A stretch of DNA of 57,230 bases from Candidatus Nanohalarchaeota archaeon (GTDB lineage: Archaea; EX4484-52; B79-G9), in the NCBI GenBank assembly GCA_030634545.1, contig DAOWAN010000002.1, positions 1 to 57,230 of the forward strand, in the 5' to 3' direction. Made by a program: the position numbers and the translations under genes. This document shows, piece after piece, positions 24,921 to 52,943 of this stretch. The notes under the pieces are model-generated. The model ran no database searches. It saw only the letters and a list, made by a program, of their open reading frames with translations, and was not told the origin of the DNA. How positions within the stretch are numbered: position 1 is the stretch's first letter; each line of letters starts with the position of its first letter.

Positions 24921-26912
24921 TTATTTTTTCTTTTTCTTGAAATTCTTCTTGTATTTTACCAATATCAACAGTAAGAAAAATATGATTGCAACTGCACCCA
25001 CAATTATCATCGTGTTCTTGTTTCTTTCCTTGCTGATTATATCTTCCAATTCCTTTATGAGTCTCTGTTGCTCTTCATTGTTCAGTCTCAGCTTCTCTAC
25101 CAGTTCCGCCTGCTCTTCAGAATTAAGCTCAAGCTCAGATATTATTATTACCTGTTCATCAAGATTAAGTTGCATGTTGATTATAATCTCTGCCTGCTCT
25201 TCTGTTGTCAGTTCCAGATTAGATATAATCTCTGCCTGCTCTCCAGTGCTTAGCTGAAGCTCTGTTATCAGCCTTGCCTGTTCTTCTATGTTCAACTGAA
25301 GCTCTGTTATCAGCCTTGCCTGTTCTTCTGTTGACAGTTCCATCGCCAATATGATTAATGCCTGCTCTTCAACCTTCCCAGTTATCTCCTGTATGAATAT
25401 GACATCTTCTGCAATGGTGTTCTGCAATGCAGATATGATTTCACCCTGTTCTGCAAAGCTCAGTTCCATCTCTGCAATCAATCTTGCCTGCTCTTCTGTC
25501 TGAATCTCTAACAGACCTATAAGTATAGCCTTTTCCAGAAGATTTATGTTCAGGTTATCTATTATTATTGCCTGTTCCTGCACATTCAGGCTCAACTGCT
25601 GTATCATGATTGCCTGTTCCTGTACTGAAAGCTCTAATTGGGCAATGATGATAGCTTTTTCATCCACTGTCAACTGAAGCTGGTCAATTATATCCGTCTG
25701 TTCCAATATTGTCCTGTCAAGCTCTGCTATCAAAAGACCTTTCTCTTCAATAGTCATCTCAAATTGTGAAATAAGCTCTGTCATCTGGTTGACTGTAATT
25801 TCAAGCTGGTTAATCAATAAGGCTTTTTCCTCTATTGTCAATTTCAGCCTGTCTATAATCTCTGCCTGTTCCTGTATCGTCAAATCAAGATGTGATATTA
25901 ACCTTGCCTGCTCATCAAGAGTAAGCTGTAATTCTTCAAGCAACCTTATCTTGTCTTCCCTTAAATCTATCAGATTATCAATCAATATCAGAATCTCGTC
26001 AATCTCTAAATTAGCAGAATTTATGATGTCAATTAGATTAGACCTGCACTCGGAAAAAGTTGAATATCCATAAGCAAGACATATATCAGGAACTTGTTTT
26101 TGAACACATACACATTGGTCTTGGTCAACAACATAATCACCAGAGCATGTCAAAGGACAGATTTTAGTTATGCTCTCCACACAATGCGGTTGGGCTGGGT
26201 CATTCCAATCAGTGCCTTTGCAGAAATTCTGTTGCCAGATGCCGTCATAGACCTGACCACGAACCCAGAGACAGTCGCTTCCATCATAATATTTGTTATT
26301 ACTGCCGTAAGGTATATCTAAAAATAAATTATCATATTGTATGTTCAATATCTTTGTTGTGAACGGTCTGTCTCCACTCCAGCCTTCAATCTCTTCAATC
26401 TTACTCCATCTTTGCATAATATTATTGTTTTGGTCAAGCAGTTCAACATACCAAGAGCATCCATTTTCAGAATCATAATCAATGCCACCATAATCTCCAA
26501 GATAATATCTATCATACCAAGTACAATGGCTGTTGCAATAAAGAGTTTTATCACATACATCACCATACGCACAACTACTTCTATCACAATCCCTGTAACC
26601 AGCAACATAAACATCGTAAATAGGGCAGACACCTGAAATTCCAATATCTTCAATATACACACTGCATGCACCAAAATTATCAGAACTAAATTCTTTGCAT
26701 CCTTGGAAACTGTAATAATTTTCACCTGTATGAACCCTGAATTTCCATGTCTCACCTGATTGATGCGTCACAAGAATATCAAGCGGTATTCCAATCCCGA
26801 TTAAAGCTGTCTGCCTGCTTGGACTTATGAATACAGTAATTGCCAAAAGAAATAAAATAACCACTACTATTATCGTACCCCGTACTTTACTCTTTGTTTT
26901 CTTCTTTACCAT
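24921..26912 (-). CDS. membrane-anchored spike or tether candidate: Cys-rich head, about 320-aa 14-residue-repeat coiled coil, C-terminal TM (663 aa)
   Basis: MVKKKTKSKVRG plus a TM. A Cys-rich domain at aa 35-290 is paralogous to 30417-31478. About 23 repeats of LxLT.EEQA.II.. span aa 300-622. TM (MIIVGAVAIIFFLLLILV) and a KKNFKKKKK tail. Confidence 0.85.
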   Translation of the reverse strand: MVKKKTKSKVRGTIIVVVILFLLAITVFISPSRQTALIGIGIPLDILVTHQSGETWKFRVHTGENYYSFQGCKEFSSDNFGACSVYIEDIGISGVCPIYDVYVAGYRDCDRSSCAYGDVCDKTLYCNSHCTWYDRYYLGDYGGIDYDSENGCSWYVELLDQNNNIMQRWSKIEEIEGWSGDRPFTTKILNIQYDNLFLDIPYGSNNKYYDGSDCLWVRGQVYDGIWQQNFCKGTDWNDPAQPHCVESITKICPLTCSGDYVVDQDQCVCVQKQVPDICLAYGYSTFSECRSNLIDIINSANLEIDEILILIDNLIDLREDKIRLLEELQLTLDEQARLISHLDLTIQEQAEIIDRLKLTIEEKALLINQLEITVNQMTELISQFEMTIEEKGLLIAELDRTILEQTDIIDQLQLTVDEKAIIIAQLELSVQEQAIMIQQLSLNVQEQAIIIDNLNINLLEKAILIGLLEIQTEEQARLIAEMELSFAEQGEIISALQNTIAEDVIFIQEITGKVEEQALIILAMELSTEEQARLITELQLNIEEQARLITELQLSTGEQAEIISNLELTTEEQAEIIINMQLNLDEQVIIISELELNSEEQAELVEKLRLNNEEQQRLIKELEDIISKERNKNTMIIVGAVAIIFFLLLILVKYKKNFKKKKK
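25047..26015. repeat. about 23 tandem 42-bp (14-codon) coding repeats
   Basis: In-frame periodicity of 42 bp. Adjacent units can be near-identical: gctctgttatcagccttgcctgttcttct occurs at 25259 and again at 25301. Confidence 0.85.
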
Positions 26913-26924
26913 CTATTTTAAGAT

Positions 26925-27182
26925 TTATTCCCATTCAAACCATTTGTTTGCTAAGAATCCCCAGAACCATAGATTAAAGATTCCGTAACATAATATCAAA
27001 AAGCCTGCCAGCATCATCAGGTTTGTCCTGGTCGGGTCAATAAGACCTCTCAGATAAACCATCAATACCAAAGGCAGTCCTGATACTAAGCCTGCAACAT
27101 AGCTTTTCAGTGTTGTCAAAACATTCTTAATGTCCCAAAATTTTCTTGCTTTAACTCTTGCTTTTCTTCTTTTTTTTGCCAT
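26925..27182 (-). CDS. small membrane protein (85 aa, 2-3 TM) with polybasic N-terminus
   Basis: MAKKRRKARVKARKFW..., then hydrophobic helices (GLVSGLPLVLMVYL, LMMLAGFLILCYGIFNLWFWGFL). Confidence 0.7.
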   Translation of the reverse strand: MAKKRRKARVKARKFWDIKNVLTTLKSYVAGLVSGLPLVLMVYLRGLIDPTRTNLMMLAGFLILCYGIFNLWFWGFLANKWFEWE

Positions 27183-27188
27183 GATTTA

Positions 27189-27455
27189 TCACCTTTTCTT
27201 AACACCTTTTGGGTGTTTTTCCATCCAAGATTTAATAAATTTCAATGCTTTTGATTTTTTCTTAAATGTTTTTCTCTTAGTCCAACTCACTTTAGTTCTT
27301 GAATAAATATTAGATGTTACAACATCCCATCTTTCTTTTCCTTTTATTTCAGCCCAAAAGCCAAAAATTCTATATGTTGCATTTGGTTGTTTATTATGAA
27401 ACCTTATACCATATTTATTATTTTCAATCTGTTTCCAGTTCCCTATTTTTGCCAT
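27189..27455 (-). CDS. small highly basic Trp/Lys-rich protein (88 aa)
   Basis: ATG ORF preceded by AGGTGATATGTT-ATG. K/R-rich C-terminus (KRKTFKKKSKALKFIKSWMEKHPKGVKKR). No TM. Confidence 0.65.
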   Translation of the reverse strand: MAKIGNWKQIENNKYGIRFHNKQPNATYRIFGFWAEIKGKERWDVVTSNIYSRTKVSWTKRKTFKKKSKALKFIKSWMEKHPKGVKKR

Positions 27456-27472
27456 AACATATCACCTTTTTC

Positions 27473-27667
27473 TTATTCTTCATAAAGAGATAATGTTTCT
27501 ACTGAATTTTTAAGATTTGATTTATCCAATTCTGCTAACACTCTCACTTTAATATTTTTTCTTTTGAATCTTTTTTTATAAAAGATTGTTAAATGTAATG
27601 TTTTTGGAAGATATACTGCTTTTCTAACTCCTTTAATTTTTTCAAATCTTTTTACAAATTTTACCAT
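27473..27667 (-). CDS. small basic protein (64 aa)
   Basis: ATG ORF (MVKFVKRFEKIKGVRK...). Confidence 0.55.
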   Translation of the reverse strand: MVKFVKRFEKIKGVRKAVYLPKTLHLTIFYKKRFKRKNIKVRVLAELDKSNLKNSVETLSLYEE

Positions 27668-27676
27668 CTTTTTCTT

Positions 27677-28276
27677 TTAAGTCGGATTAGGGAAGCACCA
27701 CATGTAATGTATCTCTTCATCAGCAAGCCATACAAACCTTGTTGCTGAACCGTCTGGACATCTGCAACAGAAGTCTATATAGTTCGGATGATTTGACATG
27801 CACTGTTCCATCTCGTAAGCATAATCTATATCTTCTTCATTACCTGCATTAAGGTAATCATAGAAGTCGATTGACCTTTCAGCCATACTCAATATATTCT
27901 TATAATTTTCATAAGTGAACTCATCTCCAAGTTCCCAGTTATGTTCTAGGACGTTCTCACAGACAGGATATAAATATTTGCATTCCCATTTAATGAGTGT
28001 CCTTGCACATGCAGTGCCTTCTTCACAGCAACCAGGGTCTTCATTGCAATACTGACCTAATGAGAATATCTTTTCACATTCTGGGTCTGGCTCTGCATCA
28101 TCATCATCTTCACCTTCATCAACAGAATTGAAGTCCTGCCACCAAGCCCTTACCTTACCATATACTTCAAATTTGACAGACACAAAACCTAGAATCAGTA
28201 TCAAAATCAGTGCTAAAATTACCCATTTCAGCTTTTTGTTTTTATTTTTCTTAGTATATTTTCTCTTCTTTACCAT
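27677..28276 (-). CDS. single-pass membrane protein with Cys-rich acidic ectodomain (199 aa)
   Basis: MVKKRKYTKKNKNKKLKW plus a TM (VILALILILILGFVSV), then about 14 Cys. Confidence 0.75.
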   Translation of the reverse strand: MVKKRKYTKKNKNKKLKWVILALILILILGFVSVKFEVYGKVRAWWQDFNSVDEGEDDDDAEPDPECEKIFSLGQYCNEDPGCCEEGTACARTLIKWECKYLYPVCENVLEHNWELGDEFTYENYKNILSMAERSIDFYDYLNAGNEEDIDYAYEMEQCMSNHPNYIDFCCRCPDGSATRFVWLADEEIHYMWCFPNPT

Positions 28277-28292
28277 CTTAAATCACTTTAAT

Positions 28293-28646
28293 TTAAGTAT
28301 AGATGCCGATACACTTGCATTCGTAAAGACCTTGTGTAGTGTAGATGCCTTCACATCTCTTGCCGTCTTCATAACAGTACTTGTCCAGACAATCTGTCGG
28401 ATTGCTTACAATACCACTGCAAACCCTTATCTCAGTACAGCATTCATCCTCAATCTCATCAGTGCATATACCATCCCATGCTGGGGCTTCACAAGAATGC
28501 TTGTTATAAGTACAGCTAACGAAGTCATAGACTGGCTCTCCATTGAAGTTGTTCACTACAAACAGGAAAACAATTCCAAGTATGAAGAACACTAATGCAG
28601 TCAATAATATCGGTGTAATGTTTCTTTTCTTTTTTTTGTTTGCCAT
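28293..28646 (-). CDS. single-pass membrane protein with Cys-rich ectodomain (117 aa)
   Basis: MANKKKKRNITP plus a TM (ILLTALVFFILGIVFLFVV), then about 12 Cys. Confidence 0.7.
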   Translation of the reverse strand: MANKKKKRNITPILLTALVFFILGIVFLFVVNNFNGEPVYDFVSCTYNKHSCEAPAWDGICTDEIEDECCTEIRVCSGIVSNPTDCLDKYCYEDGKRCEGIYTTQGLYECKCIGIYT

Positions 28647-28649
28647 CTT

Positions 28650-28889
28650 TTATCTTTTTAATATAGTTTTTGCATTGAAGATATTTGTAACAATGAAATA
28701 TACTAATGGAATAAATAAGAATGAGATTGCAGTCTGAATCATGTCAGCTACCCATAATAAATTTTGTGACAGATAATTAGGCAAGACAGTCCTCAAAACG
28801 CCTAAAACAAACATCACAAAAACAGTTATCATAAGCCCTTTCCATTCTCTCTTGGACATCTTCTTCTTTTGCTTCTTTTTCTTTACCAT
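28650..28889 (-). CDS. small membrane protein (79 aa, 2 TM) with polybasic N-terminus
   Basis: MVKKKKQKKKMSKREWKG, then LMITVFVMFVLGVL and AISFLFIPLVYFIVTNI. Confidence 0.7.
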   Translation of the reverse strand: MVKKKKQKKKMSKREWKGLMITVFVMFVLGVLRTVLPNYLSQNLLWVADMIQTAISFLFIPLVYFIVTNIFNAKTILKR

Positions 28890-28891
28890 AT

Positions 28892-29425
28892 TTATTCCTC
28901 AAGCTCATTAATGGCATCATTGATTTTTCTTATACGTTCAGTCGCTTTTTCCCTTGCCTGCTCTGATTTCTGGATTGCGTTCTGGATGCCGTTTCTTGCC
29001 TGCACTGGCACTTTTTCCAAGACATCTTCCAAAACATCTAGATGGTGCTGTGTCGCAAGTTCCAGCTTCTCCTGAAACATCTTTCTTCTTGCCAAATCTG
29101 AAACTAAATAGCCAAGATTCTCTGCTTCAGTCAATTCTTCTTCATACTCTTCCATAAGCTCTTCTGCGTAATCTTCTTTTAAATCATCTGGCATGTCCCT
29201 TAACTCAGCTAAACGCCGTTCTGCCTTGATAAGATGATGCTCTGCCTGTCTGTTCCTTATCCTGTAAACAAGCCCTTCTGCGAACTCGTAGCCTGTCTTC
29301 AAAGCATATCTGAACTTCATGTCAGGTGTTATACCCTGTCTAGGCACTTCTTCAGTTGACTGTGCTGTAACCAAACTAGATAACATCAATGTTATCAAAA
29401 GTATTGAAAATAGTTTTTGTTTCAT
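28892..29425 (-). CDS. secreted helical protein (177 aa)
   Basis: Signal peptide MKQKLFSILLITLMLSSLVTAQS. GITPDMKFRYALKTGYE resembles the GxTPDSxxYxLK start of a family of secreted helical proteins (I recall it as DUF5667-like; unverified). Confidence 0.7.
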   Translation of the reverse strand: MKQKLFSILLITLMLSSLVTAQSTEEVPRQGITPDMKFRYALKTGYEFAEGLVYRIRNRQAEHHLIKAERRLAELRDMPDDLKEDYAEELMEEYEEELTEAENLGYLVSDLARRKMFQEKLELATQHHLDVLEDVLEKVPVQARNGIQNAIQKSEQAREKATERIRKINDAINELEE

Positions 29426-29426
29426 T

Positions 29427-29804
29427 TTAGATACTCCTCTCGTAGATTATTACGACCAGTGCTATGATATAGACAGTCCCCATGATGCCCTTCAACTGCT
29501 CTGGGATTGAGCCTGTGGATAATCCTATACTGGCTGATATGATTACAATAATACCTATTATTATCGTGAAAATGTGTGCCAATTCCTTTGATGTCAGACC
29601 ATCTTTCCACATCTTCAATGCTGTCCTGATACCGCCTTCTGCTGTCAGACCAATACCTAACACCATTGTCTGAACCATCAATATCTGGAAGTTCGTAAAA
29701 GTCCAAAGCTCAAAGAACTGACCTATCAGTGTCACAAATCCGATGAAACCTATCAAGAATATTGCGTTCTTGAATCCTTTTGTTATCTTTATTTTCTTTG
29801 CCAT
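29427..29804 (-). CDS. polytopic small membrane protein (125 aa, 3-4 TM)
   Basis: MAKKIKITKGFK, then several hydrophobic helices. The competing 29422-29706 frame is His/Arg-rich and unlikely. Confidence 0.7.
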   Translation of the reverse strand: MAKKIKITKGFKNAIFLIGFIGFVTLIGQFFELWTFTNFQILMVQTMVLGIGLTAEGGIRTALKMWKDGLTSKELAHIFTIIIGIIVIISASIGLSTGSIPEQLKGIMGTVYIIALVVIIYERSI

Positions 29805-29805
29805 T

Positions 29806-30081
29806 TTATTTTAAACATACACAACTCAAACGCATTGTGTCTCTATCAATTATAATTATTTCTTTTGCATAACAGTTGTTATTTTCTGGATTATTAGGAT
29901 TTAAACAATTTGGCTTGACATCAATCTCATTACCAGTCCAGAAATTAAAACTATCACTATCATGTGGTGCTGTAATTTTTGGTTTAGTAACTATATAAAA
30001 CATTATTATAGTAAACAAGACTAGTAGAATAAAGAATGAAATCTTCCACATATTGCGTTTTTTCTTTCTTTTCTTTGCCAT
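29806..30081 (-). CDS. single-pass membrane protein with small Cys ectodomain (91 aa)
   Basis: Start taken at the ATG giving MAKKRKKKRNMWK plus a TM (ISFFILLVLFTIIMFYIV). The track start at 30090 is a TTG. Confidence 0.65.
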   Translation of the reverse strand: MAKKRKKKRNMWKISFFILLVLFTIIMFYIVTKPKITAPHDSDSFNFWTGNEIDVKPNCLNPNNPENNNCYAKEIIIIDRDTMRLSCVCLK

Positions 30082-30165
30082 CTTCTTCAAATTAAAATAA
30101 TAGAAGCGTCATCATCCCCTCACGTTAGACTCTGCTTCCAATGAACTTTTGTGGATTATAAAAAA

Positions 30166-30408
30166 TTAATCAAAAAACTGGTTCTTGACTGCCCAGCCGA
30201 TTTTCCACAGACCTGATGCTGTTATCAGACCAATAGTCACAGTGCCGACTGTCGGGTGTATCTTGCCTAATATGTCCGAGACCATATTGAAGTCTAGGAA
30301 CTCAAGAATACCTATGTTCAGACCGCCGAATACCAACAGACCGTCAGCTACTTTGTCAACAAACTCAACTACTTTATTTTTCTTCTTATATTTTTTCTTT
30401 TTTGCCAT
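30166..30408 (-). CDS. small membrane protein (80 aa, 2 TM)
   Basis: AGGTGA, an 8-nt spacer, then ATG giving MAKKKKYKKKNK... The track start is a GTG inside the SD. Confidence 0.65.
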   Translation of the reverse strand: MAKKKKYKKKNKVVEFVDKVADGLLVFGGLNIGILEFLDFNMVSDILGKIHPTVGTVTIGLITASGLWKIGWAVKNQFFD

Positions 30409-30416
30409 AGCATTAC

Positions 30417-31478
30417 TCACCTTTTCTTCTTTGTTTTCCTGTTCCTGTTGAACAAGATGCTGAATGTGATAAGCATTAATATAAATAATATTATTATGAT
30501 GATGGTGTTCGTCAGTTTAAATTCAAAAGGCTCTTCTGGTTCTTGTTCTGGTGGCTCTTCCTCTGGTGGCTCTTCCTCAAGTGTGCATTCGTCATTCACA
30601 CAGAAAAAGCCTTCTGAACAGTCTGAATCTGAAATACATTCTGGCTGTGGTTCAACACAAGTGCATGAGTCATAATCAAGCTCTTTGTCTTCTGGACATC
30701 CTAATTTACATAATAAAGTCACTGGCTCTATACAGTCTGGCTCATCAAGACCGTCATTACCAAGACAGACATTATATCTGTATCTGTCATCTTCAACCTG
30801 AAATTTCACACTTATACATGATTTTATACTAGAGCCGTCTGCACGTCTCTGGACAATTCCGTAATGGTCAGATATAGTTTTTATAGAAGTCCCTTCATAC
30901 TTGAAATCAATGGCTTCCCTGTAATATTTGTCTTTTTCCCAGTCTTCACCATATTTATCCTGTGCAGATAATTCCTTTATCAGGTTGCCTTCCTTGTCTT
31001 TAACTAAAATATACCATGCACAATTATCATAACTGTCATAGATTGCACCGCCGTATGTACCTAAATCATAGCCGTCAATCCAACTGCAATGACTTTCACA
31101 ATAATCTCCTCTGCTTGTTGAAGTTCTTTCATCACAATTCTCACCGTACATGCAGTTGCTTCTGCTTGCGATACTGTCACAGTCACGCCAGCCTTCACCA
31201 TAGCATTGTTCAATAGTGCAGTCAAATTCATAGTCAATCACTTCACCCCAGACACGGCACGCACTTTTTCCAGAACATCCAGTCGGCTTGCAACCAGTCT
31301 TCTTCCAATACTTGTCAAAAGCATTGAATGTTATCTTCAAATCTTCTGTCTCAAGAACGAAGTCAGTTCCCATGCCGATTAGTGCAGTCTGACGTACAAA
31401 AAATATTGCCATAAGAAAAATTATCAGAATGGTTGAAACTATCAAAATCTTTGTCTTTCTCTTAATTTTATCTGCCAT
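30417..31478 (-). CDS. membrane-anchored Cys-rich ectodomain protein, paralog of the head of 24921-26912 (353 aa)
   Basis: MADKIKRKTK plus a TM, then VRQTALIGMG. Shared blocks with 24921-26912: GWRDCD/GYRDCD, CMYGENCDE/CAYGDVCDK, SHCSWIDGYDLGTYGGAIYDSYDNCAWYILV/SHCTWYDRYYLGDYGGIDYDSENGCSWYVEL. Acidic EEPPEEEPPEQEPEEP linker, then a C-terminal TM and NRNRKTKKKR. Confidence 0.85.
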   Translation of the reverse strand: MADKIKRKTKILIVSTILIIFLMAIFFVRQTALIGMGTDFVLETEDLKITFNAFDKYWKKTGCKPTGCSGKSACRVWGEVIDYEFDCTIEQCYGEGWRDCDSIASRSNCMYGENCDERTSTSRGDYCESHCSWIDGYDLGTYGGAIYDSYDNCAWYILVKDKEGNLIKELSAQDKYGEDWEKDKYYREAIDFKYEGTSIKTISDHYGIVQRRADGSSIKSCISVKFQVEDDRYRYNVCLGNDGLDEPDCIEPVTLLCKLGCPEDKELDYDSCTCVEPQPECISDSDCSEGFFCVNDECTLEEEPPEEEPPEQEPEEPFEFKLTNTIIIIILFILMLITFSILFNRNRKTKKKR

Positions 31479-31502
31479 CTTCAAAAAAAAGATTCTCTGC
31501 CT

Positions 31503-31898
31503 TTACATGTATCTCTTGACAATGATTTCTGAAAGCCAGACAATCGATAATACAGTGAAAAAACCAAACACATTAGTAGATACAACATATCCTATATATG
31601 GTATTGTGAATGCTTTGTCCAATGCAGTTATCAAAATTGTCATTGAAATGACTTTCACACCTGACTCTGCACTGATAATCTCTTTCCCTTTCCTGACCCT
31701 TATCACATACACCATGAAGCATACTATCAAGATACCTTCTACAAACCAAATCAAGTCTGCTATATAGTTTCTTAGTGTAGTGAAAAGAAGCCCAAAAAGA
31801 AATAAGATGACCAATGACAACACTGCGGTTGCAGTCAGTTTCATCAACATCTTAGGCATATCTTCTTTTTTCTTTGCTTTTTTTCTCTTTTTAGCCAT
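31503..31898 (-). CDS. polytopic membrane protein (131 aa, 3-4 TM) with polybasic N-terminus
   Basis: MAKKRKKAKKKEDMPK..., then hydrophobic helices. Alternative starts at 31904 (ATG) and 31907 (TTG). Confidence 0.7.
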   Translation of the reverse strand: MAKKRKKAKKKEDMPKMLMKLTATAVLSLVILFLFGLLFTTLRNYIADLIWFVEGILIVCFMVYVIRVRKGKEIISAESGVKVISMTILITALDKAFTIPYIGYVVSTNVFGFFTVLSIVWLSEIIVKRYM

Positions 31899-31922
31899 GA
31901 GCATCAACTTTGTTAATTAATC

Positions 31923-32102
31923 CTAATCCATATATTTAGGAATGAATTTTAGATATTTTTTTAGTTCTTTAACTGCTTTTTCAGTATATAAAGAACCACC
32001 ACCATATCTTTTTTTCTTGGGTAATTGTTCAACATTTTTAATTAATTTTTTAATTCTTGATATGTGTCTTGTTTTGGAATCATATTTTTTTATCTTTACC
32101 AT
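31923..32102 (-). CDS. small highly basic protein (59 aa; not in the ORF track)
   Basis: AAGGTGAATTAATC-ATG, then MVKIKKYDSKTRHISRIKKLIKNVEQLPKKKRYGGGSLYTEKAVKELKKYLKFIPKYMD. Confidence 0.5.
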   Translation of the reverse strand: MVKIKKYDSKTRHISRIKKLIKNVEQLPKKKRYGGGSLYTEKAVKELKKYLKFIPKYMD

Positions 32103-32109
32103 GATTAAT

Positions 32110-32442
32110 TCACCTTTTTACAATCTTATAGATTTGAAAATCATAACCCCAGAAGAAGGTTTTTTTATCTTTTTTATTATGACCATATCCTGCAAATCCG
32201 CCACCCCTATTTTTAACATTTTTATGCTTTTCTGTGACTTTAACAGTTCTCGGTTTTCCTTCTTTATGAGTTTTGTAACGAATTACACTTCCGATTTTGT
32301 AATTTTTGATTTTTTTCTTTTTTAGTAGTTTTCTTTCAACAGCTTTTTTTCTTTTTCCTTTTAAAACTTTTTTACCAAAACACACTCTACAAATTGAATA
32401 TTCAGGCATTGATTCTCTTTTACGACATTTTTTACATAACAT
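32110..32442 (-). CDS. highly basic protein with N-terminal Zn-ribbon (110 aa)
   Basis: AGGTGAAAAATC-ATG. CKKC...CRVC, then a Lys-rich region (KGKRKKAVERKLLKKKKIKNYK). Confidence 0.7.
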   Translation of the reverse strand: MLCKKCRKRESMPEYSICRVCFGKKVLKGKRKKAVERKLLKKKKIKNYKIGSVIRYKTHKEGKPRTVKVTEKHKNVKNRGGGFAGYGHNKKDKKTFFWGYDFQIYKIVKR

Positions 32443-32448
32443 GATTTT

Positions 32449-32802
32449 TCACCTTTTTCTTGATATTGGAATTTTAAATGGTTTCATATATTTTTTTAAA
32501 TAATTATAAAAAGTATCAGTCATTGTAAATGGTTTGAAATATCCTTTTTCTTTTGTTTCATAATAAGTTCGTCCTTTACCTAATCCCCAGCCTTTCCATT
32601 TATAGACTTTTTTACCGCCATAATACAAAAATCTTCTTTTTACTTCGTATGGTTTTCCACCTGAAGCAGAGTTCCAATATATGATATTTTTCTTATTTTC
32701 TTCTTGTTTTTGTTTTAAAGCATTCCATTCTTTACCTTGATATTTTCCTTTGACCTTTGAAAAATCAATTCTGACTCCTTTTTTTCTCTTCTTTCTTGGC
32801 AT
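32449..32802 (-). CDS. highly basic, Tyr/Trp/Gly-rich protein (117 aa); candidate nucleic-acid-binding protein
   Basis: MPRKKRKKG... About one third of residues are K/R, with many Y/W/G. No TM. Confidence 0.7.
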   Translation of the reverse strand: MPRKKRKKGVRIDFSKVKGKYQGKEWNALKQKQEENKKNIIYWNSASGGKPYEVKRRFLYYGGKKVYKWKGWGLGKGRTYYETKEKGYFKPFTMTDTFYNYLKKYMKPFKIPISRKR

Positions 32803-32803
32803 T

Positions 32804-33103
32804 TTACTTTAAACTATTTATTATATCTTTAATGAACTGGAAGTCTGCTGATAGTATGATTAAGTATGATAACAGTGAGAATATCTGCGTCAACAAGAAC
32901 ATCAGGAACAGTTCTGCCTTGACTTCTTTGACTGTCAGTTTTGAGTTAATCCTTCTCCTGAAAAAGAACAATACTATCAATGGAAAAACTATGAAGACAA
33001 TCGGCAGTAATATATATTGTGTCTTCAGCAAGACCATTATATTGTCTAGCAAAGGCTTTGGCTCTGTCACCAGTTTACATGTAGCTAATAGTGTTGAGTT
33101 CAT
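32804..33103 (-). CDS. membrane protein (99 aa, 2-3 TM)
   Basis: Hydrophobic helices ILLPIVFIVFPLIVLFFF and LFLMFLLTQIFSLLSYLIIL. Confidence 0.6.
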   Translation of the reverse strand: MNSTLLATCKLVTEPKPLLDNIMVLLKTQYILLPIVFIVFPLIVLFFFRRRINSKLTVKEVKAELFLMFLLTQIFSLLSYLIILSADFQFIKDIINSLK

Positions 33104-33111
33104 TTATTTTT

Positions 33112-33363
33112 TTATTTAACAGTTCTTCTTAATCCTTTATCATACTTCATCGTTCTTAAAACATTAGTTAAAGCATATAGAACTTCATACAGTTCAGGTT
33201 TGCTCAATCTTCTGCTTAAGTCTGCTTGTGTATATCTTTTCTTATTTTCTAAAACTAATCTAACACCACCATAAGCCCAGTCTAAACTTAGTTCGTGAGT
33301 TCTTGTGGCAATTTGTTTGTTAAGAAATTTTATTTGATTTTCTAATGTTGATTTTGTTGTCAT
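33112..33363 (-). CDS. hypothetical protein (83 aa)
   Basis: AGGTGATTGTC-ATG gives MTTKSTLENQ... The track start is a GTG within the SD. Confidence 0.6.
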   Translation of the reverse strand: MTTKSTLENQIKFLNKQIATRTHELSLDWAYGGVRLVLENKKRYTQADLSRRLSKPELYEVLYALTNVLRTMKYDKGLRRTVK

Positions 33364-33368
33364 GACAA

Positions 33369-33830
33369 TCACCTGAATAGTTTTTTAATATCTGATTTAA
33401 CTTTGCTTGGCAATGGTCTTACTAACCATGCACTGCCGTACTTGTAACCTTTATCATTGTAAAGTCTTTTTTTCTTTAAGAATTGAACGTCTTCATCATA
33501 AGACCAGCCTTTAGGTCTTCCACGCCATTTGTTTAAAGCATCTTCCTGTCTTTTTGAGCCTGCTGTCAAATCATTCAGATGCCATTTTTTCCAAATCGTG
33601 ATAATTTTCTTCAAATTAGGTGTTGGCATTTCAATAGAATCATAAATCTGTCCAGCAGAATCCCATCTTGGTCTTCCTTTAGTTCTTTGTGCTGAATCTC
33701 CACTTATAGATAAAACATCAAAAGTGCCTGTTTTCATTGTCTTGTAATCTTTGCCCGACTTTTTCTTGATTGTTAATTCAAGCTTGACTATTTGTGTTGG
33801 TAATTTGAATGTTTTTACAAATTTTTCCAT
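33369..33830 (-). CDS. hypothetical basic protein (153 aa)
   Basis: Start taken at MEKFVKTFKL, 2 nt after the upstream stop. The track start at 33926 overlaps the upstream gene by 94 nt. Contains WKKWHLNDLTAGSKRQ; family not recognised. Confidence 0.65.
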   Translation of the reverse strand: MEKFVKTFKLPTQIVKLELTIKKKSGKDYKTMKTGTFDVLSISGDSAQRTKGRPRWDSAGQIYDSIEMPTPNLKKIITIWKKWHLNDLTAGSKRQEDALNKWRGRPKGWSYDEDVQFLKKKRLYNDKGYKYGSAWLVRPLPSKVKSDIKKLFR

Positions 33831-33832
33831 CT

Positions 33833-35347
33833 TTACTTCAACCCCAGAAAGTTTAGTTTGCTCATTAAATTCTTTATTGCGAACAGGACAACACCTACTG
33901 CGATGATTATTAAGATGCCCTGCCATGTGAATATGAAGTCTATGAAAGTCTTGAATAAGAAGTAAACAAGACCGCCTGCTGACAATGAGCCGATTACGAA
34001 CATGACTATATTGACATTATCCTTCTTTTTCTTCTTTGCTTCATACGTGTTGTAAAGGTAGCCGAAAACTCCTAATGATGTCAATACGCTTAGAATTATC
34101 GATACAATCAATATGTTCTCTTTAAGCATTTCCAAAAAGCCTTTTTTTGTCTGGCAGTCTGGGTCTTCCATATCTATCTTCCCGTCAGCATCATTGTCAA
34201 CACCGTCATCACATATCTCATCTGTGCTTTCATAACATCTTGTGTTCCTTGCATCGCAACCATACTGGCATTCCTTAATCAGATAAATTCCATTTACACA
34301 ATCCCATAAGTCTGAACCTACACATACATTTTTTGTGCAGTCTTCAGTGACCTCTTCTGCCTTGAACGAATAAGAACAAGTATCTTTTTCATCAGAGATT
34401 ATGTCTCTTGCTGTGATTGTGCATGAGAATGATTTTGTACCGCTTGTTGAAATTGCACTCACTGTTGCCTTGACTGTCCTGCTCTCTCCACCCAATAAGT
34501 CAACACCGTAAGTGCTTAATTGTGATGATGCACCTGTACCGCAGTCAACACCTAGATTGAAGCTTGCCCTTTCAGTCTGGCTCGTCCCAATGTTCGTTAT
34601 AACAAAAGATTGCGTCTCTGTATCGCCTGATTCAACCGTGAATCCGCCAAGATTACTGCAATCCAAGTCTGGCTCTCCTGTGACCTGCCTTATGCCGACC
34701 CAGTCAGCGTCAATCTCAATCGTGAACAATCCTGTTGTCATCGGTGTCTCCAATTCAACTTCCAACAGATTACCTGTATCAACATTTATCCTTCTTATAA
34801 TTGGGTTTTGTGAAAGGAATTCTGCTTTCTTGTTCTGGATGATATTGCTTGTTTCTGAATTATATCTCTGGACTTTGGCAAGAGCCTTGTCATAATCCCA
34901 AATCGCAAAATAACACCAGTCATCATTCGGGTCTGAACATTCATCACCGATAAAATTCTCCCTTACAGGTTTATAATCACCGTATGCACCATCATCAACA
35001 AATTGCCAGTTCTGTGTGTTTACAAAAAACATTGCGTCATAATTTGGTGTTGACAGCCATTGGTTTCTCAGCAAATCTCCTTCCCATCTTACAAAGACTT
35101 TGTCATTTCTTCCAGTTGTGGTATCTTGCGTCAATGTTATTGGGTCTAGTCCGTCAACAGAGAATTCTATCTCGAAATCCCTGTCTCTTGTCTCGCCGAA
35201 TCTTGCATCCTGACCTATTGAATATGTTTGGATACAATAGCATTCCGCACCGAAAAGACCGCCTTTCCTGAAAGCATGACCGCCTATCGTACCGCTTGGA
35301 CATACACCGATGCAAGTTCCTAATGCAGTGTTAGTTGTCTTGACCAT
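33833..35347 (-). CDS. Cys-rich ectodomain protein with three C-terminal TM helices (504 aa as called). It lacks its own signal peptide and is probably the distal part of a longer product (see 35462-35464).
   Basis: CDDGVDNDADGKIDMEDPDC matches the widespread CxDGxDNDxDGxxD Cys-rich repeat. The 38 codons upstream are open and coding-like, in frame with 35462-35740 across a single TAA. Confidence 0.8.
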   Translation of the reverse strand: MVKTTNTALGTCIGVCPSGTIGGHAFRKGGLFGAECYCIQTYSIGQDARFGETRDRDFEIEFSVDGLDPITLTQDTTTGRNDKVFVRWEGDLLRNQWLSTPNYDAMFFVNTQNWQFVDDGAYGDYKPVRENFIGDECSDPNDDWCYFAIWDYDKALAKVQRYNSETSNIIQNKKAEFLSQNPIIRRINVDTGNLLEVELETPMTTGLFTIEIDADWVGIRQVTGEPDLDCSNLGGFTVESGDTETQSFVITNIGTSQTERASFNLGVDCGTGASSQLSTYGVDLLGGESRTVKATVSAISTSGTKSFSCTITARDIISDEKDTCSYSFKAEEVTEDCTKNVCVGSDLWDCVNGIYLIKECQYGCDARNTRCYESTDEICDDGVDNDADGKIDMEDPDCQTKKGFLEMLKENILIVSIILSVLTSLGVFGYLYNTYEAKKKKKDNVNIVMFVIGSLSAGGLVYFLFKTFIDFIFTWQGILIIIAVGVVLFAIKNLMSKLNFLGLK

Positions 35348-35461
35348 CTGTGCTATTGAATAAATCTTAGAAGTGTCTTTGAAAACAGGAAATTGCTCGC
35401 TTTGTGATATTTTTGTAAAAGAACCAGAAACAGAATTTGTAACTTCCCAATCACCGCCCTC

Positions 35462-35464
35462 TTA
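35462..35464 (-). other. single in-frame TAA separating a leader-bearing ORF (35465-35740) from its apparent continuation (33833-35461)
   Basis: 35740, 35464 and 35347 are all in the same reading frame. The 114 nt at 35348-35461 have no stop, no ATG/GTG/TTG and no SD, and 29 of 38 third positions are A/T. Confidence 0.8.
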
Positions 35465-35740
35465 TTGTTCAAGTTTTTTTTCGATGTCATCTTTATTCCA
35501 ACTTATTGCGAGACATTCACCGCTTCCTGTACCTGCTCTTGCAAGAACTCTTATCTTGCTTCCGCCATCAATCAAAGATACTGTATCAATAGATAGAACT
35601 GAAGTCGAGCCACAAGCTATTGTAGTCTCCCTGACAAAGAAAATGCCACTAACAATCAGTATGAAAAGAATTATAATAACAGGCACAATCACCTTTTTTT
35701 TAGCAGGTTTTTTAGACCTTCTTTTTGGTTTTTTTGCCAT
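35462..35740 (-). CDS. polybasic-leader/TM protein (92 aa as called)
   Basis: MAKKPKRRSKKPAKKK plus a TM (VIVPVIIILFILIVSGIFF), then VRETTIACG, the same layout as the N-termini of 24921-26912 and 30417-31478. It has its own TATA promoter. Confidence 0.75.
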   Translation of the reverse strand: MAKKPKRRSKKPAKKKVIVPVIIILFILIVSGIFFVRETTIACGSTSVLSIDTVSLIDGGSKIRVLARAGTGSGECLAISWNKDDIEKKLEQ

Positions 35741-49660: not shown

Positions 49661-51070
49661 CTAAGGACTTAATGTCTGTGCTATCCTATCTGTTGCACTT
49701 GCTAGACCGATTAAGTCAATGTCAGCCAAGTCTTCACCTGAACTTCCGCTAGCACCATTAACTTCTTCATCGTTTGCTGTTGCTGAGTCATCGTAATCGA
49801 CTAATATTTCGTCAAAAAAGATGTGCCATTCAACAACTGCATTTTTACCTTTAGCAACTTGTCCTTCAGTACACTCGTATAGTTTCTCATTACCGTCAAC
49901 AACTGAGTCTTCACCGCTTGAACTAACGATTGTATTGTCACACTCTTCCTGCATCTCTGCTTGGAATAATATCTGTTTGGTGTTCACATTAGCTGTGCTA
50001 AATGGAACATCTCCTGTTATTCCTGAAGTGCCGTATTCTAACCACACACCATCTGCTGTACCGTTTTCACCGTAAGGTGTCACAGTAAGATAAGCCCTTT
50101 CAGTATTACCTGAAGCAAGTGGGTTATCAAGAACAATGGCGTATCCATCTTCAGAGACTTTCAATTCTATTACTGCTGTCAAGTCTATGCTTGTTGATGT
50201 GGTCAAGTCTGAGTGCATCCAACCATTCAAAGAAGCATCTAAGTCTTTTTCATGGTCTTCATCATCCATTGCGACACCACCTAACTGATATTCACCAGAT
50301 TCAAGTGCGTCTGATAGATAATTGTATTCAAGCCTGACGTTGGTTGTTCCGATGTTGAAATCATCAAAAGCGGATTGACCTATCAAGTCTTTGTCTACTT
50401 TTTCTGCCAGTTGGACAACAAATGCAAATGGGATTACGTCTCCAACTTCAGTACCTATGACTGCTCTAACCATGACTAGGTATTTACCGCCTGCTTTTGA
50501 CATTGTTGCTTCTTCAGTTGCACCTGCATCTGAGTCAACATCTCCTAAGTCTTTAGCAATCAATTCAATACCGTCTCCTTCTAAGTCATCTTGCCAGTCT
50601 GCTGTTTGGTATCCTCTGTAAAGATTCACTCTACAAAATGGATTATCGCCTGTCGGCATACCTTCAATCCATTGCATACCTTCTTCCGCAACTGTTACTG
50701 TTGGCTTTGAAAAGTCAATAACCACTGGGTTAGCGAATGCGTTGTCACAATCAAGATGATTCTCATCCTTCAAAATATCCAAATCATCTGATGTTATCTC
50801 AAAAATGTGCCACTCTACGTCATCAGGGTCGTCTTGCTCTGCACTGTCACTTGAGTCAAATTCAAGCTCAATGTCTCCACGTGCTATCCTGTGGAAATCT
50901 GCACCAGAAGGGGCTACTGTTTCTTTAGTGAAAAAAAACACTAAACCAACAAGAGCAAGTAAGAAGCAACCGCCAATGATTAAGTTTCTTGTACTATGGT
51001 CGTCTTTTTTTTGTACTATTTTAATCACCGTTTTTGGTTTTTTAAGTCTCACTGCCATACAACGGCACAT
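49661..51070 (-). CDS. membrane-anchored acidic protein (465-469 aa)
   Basis: MAVRLKKPKTVIKIVQKK... plus a TM (LIIGGCFLLALVGLVFFF), then TKETVAPSG. Asp/Glu-rich and beta-rich ectodomain. The second ATG (51058) gives the family-typical MA start. Confidence 0.8.
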   Translation of the reverse strand: MCRCMAVRLKKPKTVIKIVQKKDDHSTRNLIIGGCFLLALVGLVFFFTKETVAPSGADFHRIARGDIELEFDSSDSAEQDDPDDVEWHIFEITSDDLDILKDENHLDCDNAFANPVVIDFSKPTVTVAEEGMQWIEGMPTGDNPFCRVNLYRGYQTADWQDDLEGDGIELIAKDLGDVDSDAGATEEATMSKAGGKYLVMVRAVIGTEVGDVIPFAFVVQLAEKVDKDLIGQSAFDDFNIGTTNVRLEYNYLSDALESGEYQLGGVAMDDEDHEKDLDASLNGWMHSDLTTSTSIDLTAVIELKVSEDGYAIVLDNPLASGNTERAYLTVTPYGENGTADGVWLEYGTSGITGDVPFSTANVNTKQILFQAEMQEECDNTIVSSSGEDSVVDGNEKLYECTEGQVAKGKNAVVEWHIFFDEILVDYDDSATANDEEVNGASGSSGEDLADIDLIGLASATDRIAQTLSP

Positions 51071-51106
51071 GAAACTGCGTTGTAATAGATTTACAATTTG
51101 CTTTCT

Positions 51107-51119
51107 AGTTTATATATGT
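51107..51119 (-). promoter_or_regulatory. TATA-box promoter
   Basis: The coding strand reads ACATATATAAACT, 37-49 nt upstream of the candidate ATGs. Confidence 0.45.
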
Positions 51120-51137
51120 TGGTTTTTAAGAAAAAAA

Positions 51138-51545: not shown

Positions 51546-51747
51546 CTATTATATTTATCAACAACATCCTTTTCGGCATGTCTAGATAATACTTCATCTT
51601 CTTTTTGTTAGTGACCCAGAACTTCTGCGTACCTCTGGCAACCTTGATTCTCTTGATTTCTTTTCTTCTTTTATGAATATTTTTGAGCCTTTTGGCTTTC
51701 TCTTTCTGCACAGTTTTCATGTGCTTCTTCTGTTGCTCTGGTGTCAC
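51487..51747 (-). CDS. small highly basic protein (86 aa)
   Basis: MTPEQQKKHMKTVQKEKAKRLKNIHKRRKEIKRIKVARG... Confidence 0.6.
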   Translation of the reverse strand: MTPEQQKKHMKTVQKEKAKRLKNIHKRRKEIKRIKVARGTQKFWVTNKKKMKYYLDMPKRMLLINIIDVEYKTPEELEDEQPKEKH

Positions 51748-52031
51748 TTTTTCGGCACTAAGACTTCTAATGATTTTATGTCTATAAAAGACATTTTTTG
51801 TGTTTTAAAAACAGCTACCTTTACATCACTTGTATTGTTTTTATAATGACAAATTTCAAGTTTTCTTCTTTTATCTAACTGTGTTTTAGTAAAAAGCCAT
51901 GTCAACATTGGATAATGAAAACTCAAAAATCTTCCAATATATATTTCCTTATGTCTTGTTTCTATTTTTAATATGTCTCCTTCCTCAAAAGTTGTGTTGC
52001 CATATCTTCCCATCTGTATTAATTTTTCCAT
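51744..52031 (-). CDS. hypothetical protein (95 aa)
   Basis: AGGTGATTAAACA-ATG with a 4-nt overlap onto the downstream gene. Confidence 0.6.
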   Translation of the reverse strand: MEKLIQMGRYGNTTFEEGDILKIETRHKEIYIGRFLSFHYPMLTWLFTKTQLDKRRKLEICHYKNNTSDVKVAVFKTQKMSFIDIKSLEVLVPKK

Positions 52032-52133
52032 TGTTTAATCACCTAATTTTACATTTACAATCTTTTTCATTCCAACTTGTATGATTGCCCCAAGTTATTA
52101 ACCACCAAAATATTTCTGATAATTTCATTTATA

Positions 52134-52943
52134 TCACCCTGTTGTATTTGTTAGATTCTGTGTTATGTTCCACGCAAAATCAAAATTAATCTTTGTTCCT
52201 AAAAACAAGCCGATTGTCTTGAACAATGCACCAGTAAGAAGATAATGCCCGATGCCTTTGAACGCAATAATCCAGTGCCACCATTGGTTAATCAGCAACC
52301 TGTCTATAAAGTGGAAAAGGTTTGTTGCTATGGCTTTGACAAGTCCAAAACCTACCAGATTTGTTATAGGAACAAAGTTGAACGTGATGACCTTTGAAAT
52401 GAAAATCATGTTTCCGATATTTGAAAATATCAGGAATATGTATAGCATCAGGAAAGCGTACCAGCTTATCTCAGATTTTGGTGTGGACTCATTGATTGGT
52501 AATTTGTCAATGTCCCTGCCTAATTTTTTTACGATGAGATTCATTGGAAACGTCCATGAATACTGCCTTACTAGATAACAGAATGCCCTGTGCCACCAGA
52601 TGTAAAAGAAACTTTCCTTGATGACCAATGCTAGAGTTATTATTGCCTGCCATAATGTCGGGCTTGCTATCCTGCTGAAATCAACTGACATATCATAAAT
52701 CTTCTGGTCAACTGTGATGACTGTCTTGACCATCTGCATGACACCAGCCAATACACTGTGCTGTTGGATTCCGACAGAAATTGCTATGCCGATTGTTGTG
52801 ATGAAGGCAATCAGACCGTACCATCTCAACAGTTTAGCACCAATGGTGAGACCTGCACCGAGCAGAAAATCTTTTGAAAAGATGAAACTCAGTATCTTGA
52901 CAAATTTTCCACCTAGAGAAGCAATTATGTTTTTAATAGCCAT
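52134..52943 (-). CDS. polytopic integral membrane protein (269 aa, about 6-7 TM)
   Basis: Many hydrophobic helices. First gene of the minus-strand block, with a TATA box 22 nt upstream. Confidence 0.8.
   Translation of the reverse strand: MAIKNIIASLGGKFVKILSFIFSKDFLLGAGLTIGAKLLRWYGLIAFITTIGIAISVGIQQHSVLAGVMQMVKTVITVDQKIYDMSVDFSRIASPTLWQAIITLALVIKESFFYIWWHRAFCYLVRQYSWTFPMNLIVKKLGRDIDKLPINESTPKSEISWYAFLMLYIFLIFSNIGNMIFISKVITFNFVPITNLVGFGLVKAIATNLFHFIDRLLINQWWHWIIAFKGIGHYLLTGALFKTIGLFLGTKINFDFAWNITQNLTNTTG

Follow-up and report, generated by a model that had tools for sequence, protein, structure and literature searches.

The 57,230-nucleotide (nt) contig DAOWAN010000002.1, which was analysed as a whole and is hereafter called the window, is probably a near-complete circular genome of about 56,967 nt. 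We give about even chances to the reading that it represents a new family of non-tailed, lipid-containing archaeal viruses in which a HerA-like ATPase pumps DNA into the particle. The window (GC about 0.35) is organised as a single minus-strand gene array, running from position 52943 down to 1456, with plus-strand genes flanking both ends. The array begins with a block of genes for membrane and secreted proteins (24921-52943), which an initial annotation, made by eye from the sequence, had put forward as the structural module of an enveloped archaeal virus or a vesicle-forming plasmid. That annotation had recorded neither that the contig is a whole, probably circular genome, nor the HerA-type ATPase, the pair formed by a GHKL ATPase and a Topo-mini-A-like protein, or the mobile receptor-binding cassette described below.

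The product of 55198-56814, encoded just outside the block, is the only Walker A/P-loop protein of the genome. It has no family match in Pfam, PHROGs or NCBIfam, and a word-indexed search for homologs returned about two to three relatives; an exhaustive HMMER search with a three-sequence profile was needed to expose its family, which comprises 314 cluster representatives at 50% identity, nearly all of 520-580 amino acids (aa). In searches against the PDB, a profile of 45 family sequences matched HerA (8xau, 2.3e-11; 4d2i, 3e-6) and, more weakly, the STIV B204 packaging ATPase (5e-4) and the VirB4-like 4ag5 (2.4e-3, P-loop only). AlphaFold2 (AF2), run with the family alignment, produced a model with a predicted local distance difference test score (pLDDT) of 89 and a predicted template modelling score (pTM) of 0.81, according to which the protein is a HerA-clade translocase of double-stranded DNA (dsDNA), with a RecA-like core, Walker A and B motifs and a helical insertion; a long coiled coil follows, and a helical bundle closes the chain. 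The top 50 Foldseek matches of this model in the PDB were all HerA (E down to 9e-12, TM-score about 0.5); in BFVD, the matches were, in order, phage HerA-like proteins, a 'conjugal transfer protein' (2e-6), a Corticoviridae nucleoside triphosphatase (NTPase; 2.5e-5), the ATPase of Haloarcula virus PH1 (5e-5; TMt 0.67) and A32-like ATPases (to 1e-3). Several family members have Pfam matches to a helix-turn-helix (HTH) at the C-terminus, and four of the 45 match a TraG P-loop. The Walker A motif lies at residues 37-40 with only three short strands before it, and the N-terminal HAS-barrel is at most vestigial. No NurA, Sir2 or DUF4297 partner is encoded beside the ATPase; the genes next to it specify small helical proteins, for which neither the PDB nor Pfam gave a match.

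The genes around the ATPase are conserved. Across 13-15 loci (related loci are designated by L and a number) it always occurs with a helical protein of about 180 aa encoded directly upstream, a protein of 140-185 aa encoded downstream and a serine recombinase. Most members of the downstream family have a basic N-terminus ('TKGARD..RK.R'), which the window copy lacks, and profiles of the 176-aa and 140-aa families gave nothing significant against the PDB. The core of the family is a HerA-HTH translocase, two to three small helical proteins, a small basic protein, a serine recombinase and a set of membrane proteins; no published description of the family was found. The relative L016 encodes a second HerA-like ATPase (9639-11048), absent from the window.

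The 801-aa protein of the window is on record for one contig, of 57,230 nt, so the window is an entire contig. In three independent relatives, L009, L010 and L012, the ATPase gene is followed by a homolog of the 140-aa gene, the serine recombinase gene and homologs of the minus-strand genes at 2748-6977, which is the order obtained when the end of the window is joined to position 198. Given this order, the ATPase operon continues across the contig ends, and because the synteny of the relatives wraps those ends we read the window as circular. Its final 66 nt (57165-57230) are a copy of nt 198-263 with one mismatch; the repeat begins exactly at the ATG of the 140-aa gene, and the sequences upstream of the two copies differ. 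Nucleotides 1-197 are the 3' end of an unrelated plus-strand open reading frame (ORF) with no match elsewhere in the window or in the relatives, and may be a strain variant or an assembly artefact or join at the contig start. A distant relative of 34,656 nt, IMGVR_UViG_3300045006_000421, is circular (about 34.5 kb), since its ends overlap exactly over 127 nt within the gene for the ATPase, and a JGI contig from an independent assembly (Ga0233423_10000216) reads through the junction. This relative (L038, L039 and L027) was thus assembled twice, with different break points. Among the other related sequences, L013 and L014 are related to L012 (a 45.9-kb contig), all three from Hainich groundwater.

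No housekeeping gene was found in the whole 57-kb contig or in about 20 related loci. This bears on the possibility that the block is an island of cell-envelope or adhesion genes from the chromosome of an archaeon with a small genome (e.g., DPANN), joined in the contig to prophage remnants. Cys-rich adhesin-like proteins and DUF5667 and DUF378 proteins do occur in cellular genomes, and the relatives were recovered from samples in which ultra-small cells abound (e.g., the Hainich 0.1 um fraction). However, the lack of housekeeping genes, a synteny that wraps the contig ends, the circular relative and the outcome of pattern scans of 185,579 GTDB species genomes, which yielded nothing for the ATPase and a single marginal match, in a bacterial metagenome-assembled genome, for the N-terminal domain of the 801-aa protein, make an island very improbable. 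The contig as a whole, the related loci and the circular relative thus bear out the initial reading of a mobile element, as against a chromosomal island.

With a cut-off of 30 aa, the block has 36 minus-strand ORFs and is about 99% coding; 10 of the junctions overlap and 16 have gaps of at most 20 nt. The tight, overlapping packing seen by eye is therefore real, with 36 ORFs in place of about 37. Membrane or secreted products, called with a 19-residue Kyte-Doolittle window from an N-terminal anchor or signal peptide, a C-terminal transmembrane (TM) helix or several TM helices, account for 24 of the 36, against 10 of 64 elsewhere on that strand (Fisher p=4.7e-7), so that the enrichment holds although the earlier figure of at least 28 does not. 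Polybasic N-termini (MAKKKK...) followed by a TM helix are frequent, and C-terminal TM helices with a K/R tail are present, in agreement with the first inspection. The nine large proteins that had been described as ectodomains rich in Cys and N-x-S/T are there, some with revised sizes (663, 355, 504, 346, 801, 1014, 1399, 307 and 469 aa; the revised ones are 355, 346, 801 and 469, and the 801-aa protein has 784 aa from its likely start). Most are Cys-rich (11-35 Cys per protein), but richness in N-x-S/T is confined to the 1399-, 1014- and 801-aa proteins (50, 33 and 30 sequons, respectively). The only family matches in the block, from Pfam, PHROGs and NCBIfam, are CBM96, Laminin_G_3, DUF378 and DUF5667.

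The same three libraries were scanned with about 60 window proteins (all those above 250 aa and most block ORFs) and with 10 relatives' proteins. In neither set was a capsid, portal, terminase, tail or tape-measure family detected at the level of hidden Markov models (HMMs), which very divergent folds may escape; the visual impression that capsid, portal and terminase genes are lacking was thus correct at this level. No HK97-fold major capsid protein (MCP), portal or large terminase by which the element could be placed in the Caudoviricetes was found by HMM, nor any match to a jelly-roll MCP family, and the 469-aa protein, a candidate, gave an unusable single-sequence AF2 model (pLDDT 31). In the circular relative, about 31.5 kb of the approximately 34.5 kb was read, with no large soluble capsid candidate. 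It is accordingly doubtful that the element is a conventional virus with capsid genes too divergent for profile HMMs, either tailed with an HK97 capsid or tailless and icosahedral with an inner membrane, the latter with a jelly-roll MCP, an FtsK/HerA ATPase and small membrane proteins in the internal membrane (PRD1-, STIV- or SH1-like). Viruses with an internal membrane do encode many small membrane proteins; an FtsK/HerA-superfamily ATPase is the motor type of Varidnaviria, as the matches to Corticoviridae, PH1, A32-like proteins and B204 recall, and the beta-rich, acidic 307- and 469-aa proteins belong to no class. Yet both of these carry N-terminal membrane anchors, unusual for jelly-roll MCPs, and the ATPase, which is about two times as large as the packaging ATPases known from Varidnaviria and has an HTH in addition, resembles those of Corticoviridae, PH1 and the A32 group (2.5e-5 to 1e-3) less than it resembles HerA (1e-11).

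Part of the block is shared with tailed viruses. The genes for the 1014-aa protein (signal peptide and Laminin_G_3/ConA-like lectin domain), the 801-aa protein (signal peptide and tail-fibre-type repeats) and the 346-aa protein (Cys-rich, with a C-terminal TM helix) occur in the same order in L006, L007 and L008, at 44-55% identity. The repeats of the 801-aa protein (60-100 residues) are common to tail-fibre proteins with Peptidase_S74, gp36 and Mtd_N domains, and a pair of 801-like and Laminin_G_3 genes is also found in two tailed viruses, L004 and L036, the latter of which encodes a portal and an SU10 MCP, and beside a D5 primase gene in L035; a tblastn search of phages with the 801-aa protein itself gave one marginal match of 31 residues. 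A spindle-shaped virus of Nitrosopumilaceae (a thaspivirus) encodes a 2203-aa product, ORF12, with which the lectin domain of the 1014-aa protein aligns at 35% identity over 88 aa. The cassette is mobile, and its presence in tailed viruses and its similarity to a thaspivirus ORF identify it, as judged from these sequence relationships, as a horizontally exchanged host-recognition module. Of the host-attachment gene set proposed initially, at least this three-gene part is substantiated. The neighbouring 1399-aa protein has identical copies on two short metagenome contigs.

The expression signals are archaeal. The sequence AAAATATATAAA, which resembles a B recognition element and TATA box (BRE/TATA) and was allowed at most one mismatch, occurs 15 times in the window against 2.8 expected, on the correct strand and about 25-35 nt upstream of operon-head ATGs that have no Shine-Dalgarno (SD) site; these first genes are leaderless, and GGTGA SD sites precede internal genes. 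The archaeal promoter and SD grammar noticed in the initial annotation is thus real. Two inverted boxes, at 52953-52983 and 53243-53273, serve the minus-strand block and the plus-strand ATPase operon. The window also encodes a TFIIE-alpha-like winged HTH (wHTH) protein (weak Pfam match), and the relatives have TFIIB Zn-ribbon, TrmB and F-93 wHTH domains. On the strength of these promoters, leaderless first genes and transcription-factor domains, read from sequence, the element is archaeal and not bacterial. A bacterial (Bacteroidota) origin had been considered because of the identity between the Topo-mini-A-like protein and Cellulophaga phage proteins; it was rejected in view of the archaeal grammar, for which reason this gene is best read as horizontally transferred.

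Several lines of evidence argue for a virus. The accessory genes (YopX, HNH, ASCH, a methyltransferase (MTase) and Topo mini-A) are phage-type; the receptor-binding cassette is virion-type, and there are candidate DNA-condensing proteins; the enrichment of membrane and secreted products goes together with the lack of detectable capsid genes; and core membrane proteins and a 2-TM hairpin are kept across distant relatives. The ATPase also resembles the packaging ATPases of membrane viruses. Two relatives are catalogued in IMG/VR as uncultivated viral genomes (UViGs), and three distant relatives carry a tRNA-Met (CAT) gene (L023, 9638-9711; L025, 8287-8360; L030, 4708-4780), in each case directly downstream of a gene for an N-anchored protein of about 300 aa. 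In the window, tRNA and Rfam scans revealed no tRNA or other RNA gene.

Some of the same features would be expected of a self-transmissible archaeal plasmid or integrative element, in which the block and the HerA/VirB4-superfamily ATPase would form a DNA-transfer apparatus, conjugation-like (Ced/Ted, Sulfolobales plasmids), vesicle-mediated (pR1SE) or of the pT26-2 type. In that case the polytopic 269- and 372-aa proteins would make up the channel, while the 2-TM proteins would serve as channel or pilin-like subunits and the large ectodomain proteins as mating adhesins. A plasmid or vesicle element was the alternative named in the initial annotation, and we rank it as the main rival, a serious one though less probable than a virus. 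No capsid genes were found, and the ATPase has both the BFVD match to a 'conjugal transfer protein' and, in its family, the TraG P-loop matches; its C-terminal HTH, moreover, recalls dsDNA pumps that are directed by sequence, for example FtsK-gamma and Streptomyces TraB. The architecture is that of the conserved region of pT26-2 (PMC6972569), and Ced/Ted components are likewise unrecognisable by sequence from one system to another (PMC9905601). On the other side, no window protein matches a VirB4, VirB6, VirB2 or TraG family in Pfam or NCBIfam, the top structural neighbours of the ATPase are HerA and not VirB4, and tblastn with the ATPase against 72,556 PLSDB plasmids (E<=1) gave no match. The cassette common to tailed viruses, the phage-type accessory genes, the tRNA genes of the relatives, the tight unidirectional micro-ORFs and the basic proteins that resemble DNA-condensing ones are also more virus-like than plasmid-like.

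The virus reading has its own difficulties. No structural protein was recognised by homology or fold, and the one block protein that was modelled, the 469-aa protein, gave the poor score quoted above. The TM calls are crude hydropathy estimates, and the IMG/VR label is an automated one. Cellular and defence HerA proteins are nearer to the ATPase than known packaging ATPases are, and motors of the HerA/VirB4 type also power conjugation. A simple circle does not account for nt 1-197, and the end repeat has its mismatch. No relative was found in INPHARED.

A megablast search of INPHARED with 25 kb of the block and tblastn searches of 50,697 phage and archaeal-virus records with the ATPase and the 372-aa protein gave no match. 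In IMG/VR, the ATPases of the relatives were matched, and those searches returned nothing for the ATPase and the 801-aa protein of the window.

If the element is a virus, we infer a membrane-bounded particle for which the 28-kb block would supply both morphogenesis and attachment to the host. Its type-II-anchored and polytopic products (those of 269, 372, 469 and 307 aa, together with the small proteins that have 2-4 TM helices) would be inserted in the host cytoplasmic membrane and become the membrane proteins of the particle, and the basic small proteins would condense the DNA. A hexamer of the HerA-like ATPase may recognise the genome through its HTH and a small basic partner and pump dsDNA into the particle, from which the large, Cys-rich, glycosylated ectodomain proteins, including the exchanged lectin and fibre cassette, would project outward and bind the next host. 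The serine recombinase may resolve multimers or integrate the genome. Our guess is that the hosts are DPANN or other uncultivated mesophilic archaea, the mention of DPANN coming from the type of sample.

A bolder version of the virus reading, which we hold only tentatively, is that a new lineage of archaeal viruses, of high rank, is recognised here from its first genome, with a virion made of proteins inserted in the host membrane and filled by a HerA-HTH motor. A capsid protein of HK97, jelly-roll or SSV type would be lacking, and the virion might instead be built from an N-anchored, possibly prepilin-like major protein and 2-TM hairpins. Packaging by a hexameric HerA-type motor with an HTH of its own for DNA recognition is not known in any virus, and would link viral packaging, HerA and conjugative DNA pumps; this, too, is a tentative proposal.

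Features of the 57,230-nt window, from the plus-strand ATPase operon through the membrane/secreted block to the accessory genes
Feature	Position	Strand	Basis or remarks
HerA-clade FtsK/HerA-superfamily ATPase (predicted), 538 aa (525 from likely start)	55198..56814	+	C-terminal coiled coil and HTH
Small helical partner proteins, 117/144/176 aa	53282..55247	+	upstream of the ATPase; 176-aa family in 13 loci
Divergent promoter region	52953..53273		two inverted AAAGAAAATATATAAA BRE/TATA boxes
Polytopic membrane protein, 269 aa	52134..52943	-	first block gene, downstream of divergent BRE/TATA promoter
Three small soluble basic proteins, 95/86/135 aa	51138..52031	-	isoelectric point (pI) 9.5-10.1
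Acidic N-anchored protein, 469 aa, own promoter	49661..51070	-	pI 4.1; hydropathy, composition
N-anchored, beta-rich acidic protein, 307 aa	48663..49586	-	homolog in L012, 38% identity, 4e-48
Polytopic (5-7 TM) membrane protein, 372 aa	47500..48618	-	family also in L012, L027 and L006 (integrase-type)
Secreted, C-terminally anchored protein, 1399 aa	42743..46942	-	Pfam CBM96 1.5e-16; 35 Cys, 50 N-x-S/T
Three-gene receptor-binding cassette, 1014/801/346 aa	36316..42714	-	Laminin_G_3 3e-10
N-anchored ORF, 92 aa, and Cys-rich ORF, 504 aa (4-5 C-terminal TM)	33833..35740	-	same frame
Very basic soluble small proteins, 185/86/117/110 (Zn-ribbon-like)/59 aa	31923..33926	-	pI 10.1-10.5, up to 35% K+R
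Small membrane proteins, 134, 84 (DUF378), 125, 79 and 85 aa, 2-4 TM	26925..31907	-	hydropathy, Pfam
N-anchored Cys-rich proteins, 355/94/117/199 aa	26925..31907	-	
Secreted helical DUF5667 protein, 177 aa; basic 64- and 88-aa proteins	26925..31907	-	
663-aa protein	24921..26912	-	N-anchor, 280-aa Cys-rich domain, about 24 x 14-residue repeat, C-terminal TM
Type IIB topoisomerase-like pair	20562..24724	-	GHKL ATPase, 468 aa (23318-24724); Topo-mini-A-like, 378 aa (20562-21698)
YopX	20221-20562		Pfam
HNH	10327-10710		Pfam
ASCH	3671-4021		Pfam
Trio of 187 aa (soluble), 205 aa (N-anchored) and 497 aa	2748..6977	-	homologs in L009, L012, L027
140-aa basic protein, then serine recombinase	198..1468	+	5' end of 140-aa gene duplicated at 57165-57230
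Serine recombinase	674-1468		Pfam

At the head of the block, the 269-aa protein has no Pfam, PHROG or NCBIfam match and a homolog in the Hainich groundwater relative L012 (43% identity, 1e-49), in which the 95-aa protein (51744-52031) is also kept. The 469-aa protein is a candidate major surface or structural protein. It occupies the position held in L012 by fam1, a family of N-anchored proteins of about 300-390 aa found in L012, L016, L023, L025, L027 and L030, to which it shows no homology by hhalign or blastp; the 469- and 307-aa proteins have in common an NLIIGG motif directly before the TM helix. In fam1, an invariant K-G directly precedes the hydrophobic helix, and the body is rich in Ser, Thr, Gly and Asp and of beta type; the motif resembles, in sequence, an archaeal class III (prepilin) signal, which we take as a lead and not as a result, and a fam1 profile gave nothing significant against the PDB. 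The 79-, 125- and 663-aa proteins of the window likewise have K/R-G ahead of the helix. A prepilin peptidase was sought among the polytopic proteins and rejected, as there is neither a Peptidase_A24 match nor a GxGD motif. The 372-aa protein is the most widely kept membrane protein of the block, and has no match in Pfam, PHROGs or NCBIfam and none by tblastn in phages.

Further along, the 92- and 504-aa ORFs are split by a single TAA (35462-35464) just after a run of A. The former has a polybasic N-terminal anchor and the latter no signal sequence, and together they may encode an N-anchored protein of 635 aa; the TAA could be a site of programmed read-through, a nonsense mutation or a sequencing error. 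The very basic small proteins of 31923-33926, a run that includes a 99-aa 2-TM protein, are candidate DNA-condensing proteins by their composition. Among the small membrane proteins, the 85-aa 2-TM hairpin (26925-27182) has homologs among five 2-TM genes in the distant relatives L023 and L025 (2e-5), a conservation that fits a core structural role, without proving it; the basic 88-aa protein (27189-27455) has a match in L031, and its family occurs also in L023-L026. The suggestion that the short 2-4-TM proteins serve as capsid proteins remains an analogy with spindle-shaped and pleomorphic viruses. At the end of the block, the repeats of the 663-aa protein form a coiled-coil stalk between its N- and C-terminal membrane anchors, and its N-terminal Cys-rich domain is shared with the 355-aa protein (30417-31484) at 36% identity (2e-41), the two being paralogous.

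Outside the block, Pfam agrees with the initial assignment of YopX, HNH, ASCH and serine recombinase genes, and the MTase gene is also among the accessory genes. The GHKL ATPase (weak Pfam HATPase_c match; phrog_6077) is encoded 1.6 kb upstream of the Topo-mini-A-like protein, which matches phrog_6247 ('DNA topoisomerase', 7e-73) and shows about 50% identity to proteins from phages of Cellulophaga and Chryseobacterium; the pair is thus carried by an archaeal element and has its closest relatives in bacterial phages. In the trio at 2748-6977, the 497-aa protein has a signal peptide, many N-x-S/T sequons and a C-terminal TM helix. The minus-strand gene at 15733-16287 encodes an N-anchored 184-aa protein with a transglutaminase-like (DUF553) domain, also found in L023, L024 and L026, which may be an extracellular protease or cross-linking enzyme.

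Two sets of relatives differ in their cargo. L012 carries genes absent from the window (960-1373, 7330-8352 and 17377-17799) for an ART-PolyVal-like ADP-ribosyltransferase, a 340-aa P-loop NTPase, which heads the membrane block, and an IS200-type Y1 transposase. L006-L008 are 18-kb elements with three gene families in common with the block; they have a tyrosine integrase beside a 406-aa ORF with a HerA/FtsK-type Walker B motif, 'YIFIEEADRLLP' (L007 1-702, a partial ATPase), encode otherwise almost only membrane proteins and look like a smaller, pleolipovirus-sized cousin of the window element.

If these elements are viruses, they form a widespread group (the 314 ATPase clusters come from groundwater and other metagenomes) that has been largely missed by searches for capsid and terminase hallmarks, and would extend the archaeal virosphere by a new type of virion and packaging, the hosts probably being ones for which hardly any viruses are known. 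As plasmids, they would offer a candidate DNA-transfer apparatus in mesophilic uncultivated archaea. Either way, the operon of HerA-HTH ATPase, serine recombinase and small partners is a usable marker for mining, and the mobile lectin and fibre cassette shows that tailed viruses and these capsid-less elements exchange modules for host recognition.

Among known systems, HerA itself (HerA-NurA, HerA-Sir2 and HerA-DUF4297) shares with the window ATPase the fold, Walker A and B and the arginine-finger region; the window protein, in contrast, has no such partner and no full HAS-barrel, adds the coiled coil and HTH, and belongs to a mobile element on which a serine recombinase and small helical proteins invariably accompany it. 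The Ced/Ted systems combine a VirB4/HerA-like ATPase, a protein with 6-7 TM helices and 2-TM pilins, with no sequence similarity across systems (PMC9905601). Topologies that match those of Ced/Ted and type IV secretion systems are found in the window (the polytopic 269- and 372-aa proteins and the small TM proteins of 79-134 aa), with no Pfam or NCBIfam match; the window ATPase, however, lacks a VirB4-type N-domain, has a C-terminal HTH and HerA neighbours, and the block has many more components, including virion-typical lectin and fibre proteins.

Spindle-shaped viruses (Thaspi-, Halspi- and Fuselloviridae) are, like the window element, AT-rich and archaeal, with several small, very hydrophobic 2-TM proteins encoded next to giant adhesin-like ORFs, and by hydropathy the 85-, 79-, 84- and 99-aa proteins have the small, two-helix architecture of SSV1 VP1 and His1 VP21. 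No homology of these hairpins to the thaspivirus MCP candidates ORF13 and ORF14 or to any PHROG was found, and the window differs in having neither a protein-primed DNA polymerase B (pPolB) nor an SSV-type integrase, and in its HerA-type ATPase with HTH, which is no hallmark of spindle-shaped viruses. Pleolipoviridae have a capsid-less membrane-vesicle virion and a genome of 7-16 kb, with a five-gene cluster (VP3, VP4, ORF6, ORF7 and the NTPase VP8) of spike, internal membrane protein, small membrane ORFs and NTPase (PMC5882103). HRPV-1-like members are comparable in size and layout to L006-L008, whereas the window has 57 kb and 24 membrane or secreted proteins against their one or two spike proteins and halophilic hosts; tblastn with the ATPase and the 372-, 801- and 1014-aa proteins gave no pleolipovirus match among the 50,697 records.

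The conserved region of pT26-2 has 12 genes, nine of them for proteins with TM helices, a carbohydrate-binding domain and a HerA/VirB4/B204-like ATPase; its core consists of seven genes (t26-5p, 6p, 7p, 11p, 13p, 14p and 15p) whose proteins have no homologs outside the family, for which a novel mechanism of DNA transfer or particle formation was proposed (PMC6972569). Both pT26-2 (Thermococcales, Methanococcales) and pR1SE are, like the window element, mid-sized and circular, with a module of mostly TM proteins, a HerA/VirB4/B204-like ATPase, a recombinase, some carbohydrate-binding domains, a variable accessory region and no capsid genes. No sequence similarity to pT26-2 was found, a comparison made for the ATPase, in the PLSDB search given above. 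Unlike these two, the window element has a serine recombinase in place of an SSV-type tyrosine integrase, a genome about twice as large, phage-type accessory genes and a tail-fibre-type receptor-binding cassette, and its family comes from mesophilic samples (such as groundwater, lakes and sediment) where theirs belong to hyperthermophiles or halophiles. By analogy, then, the element would work like pleolipoviruses, pR1SE and pT26-2, as a capsid-less system based on membrane proteins and an NTPase, and it differs from them in size and sequence.

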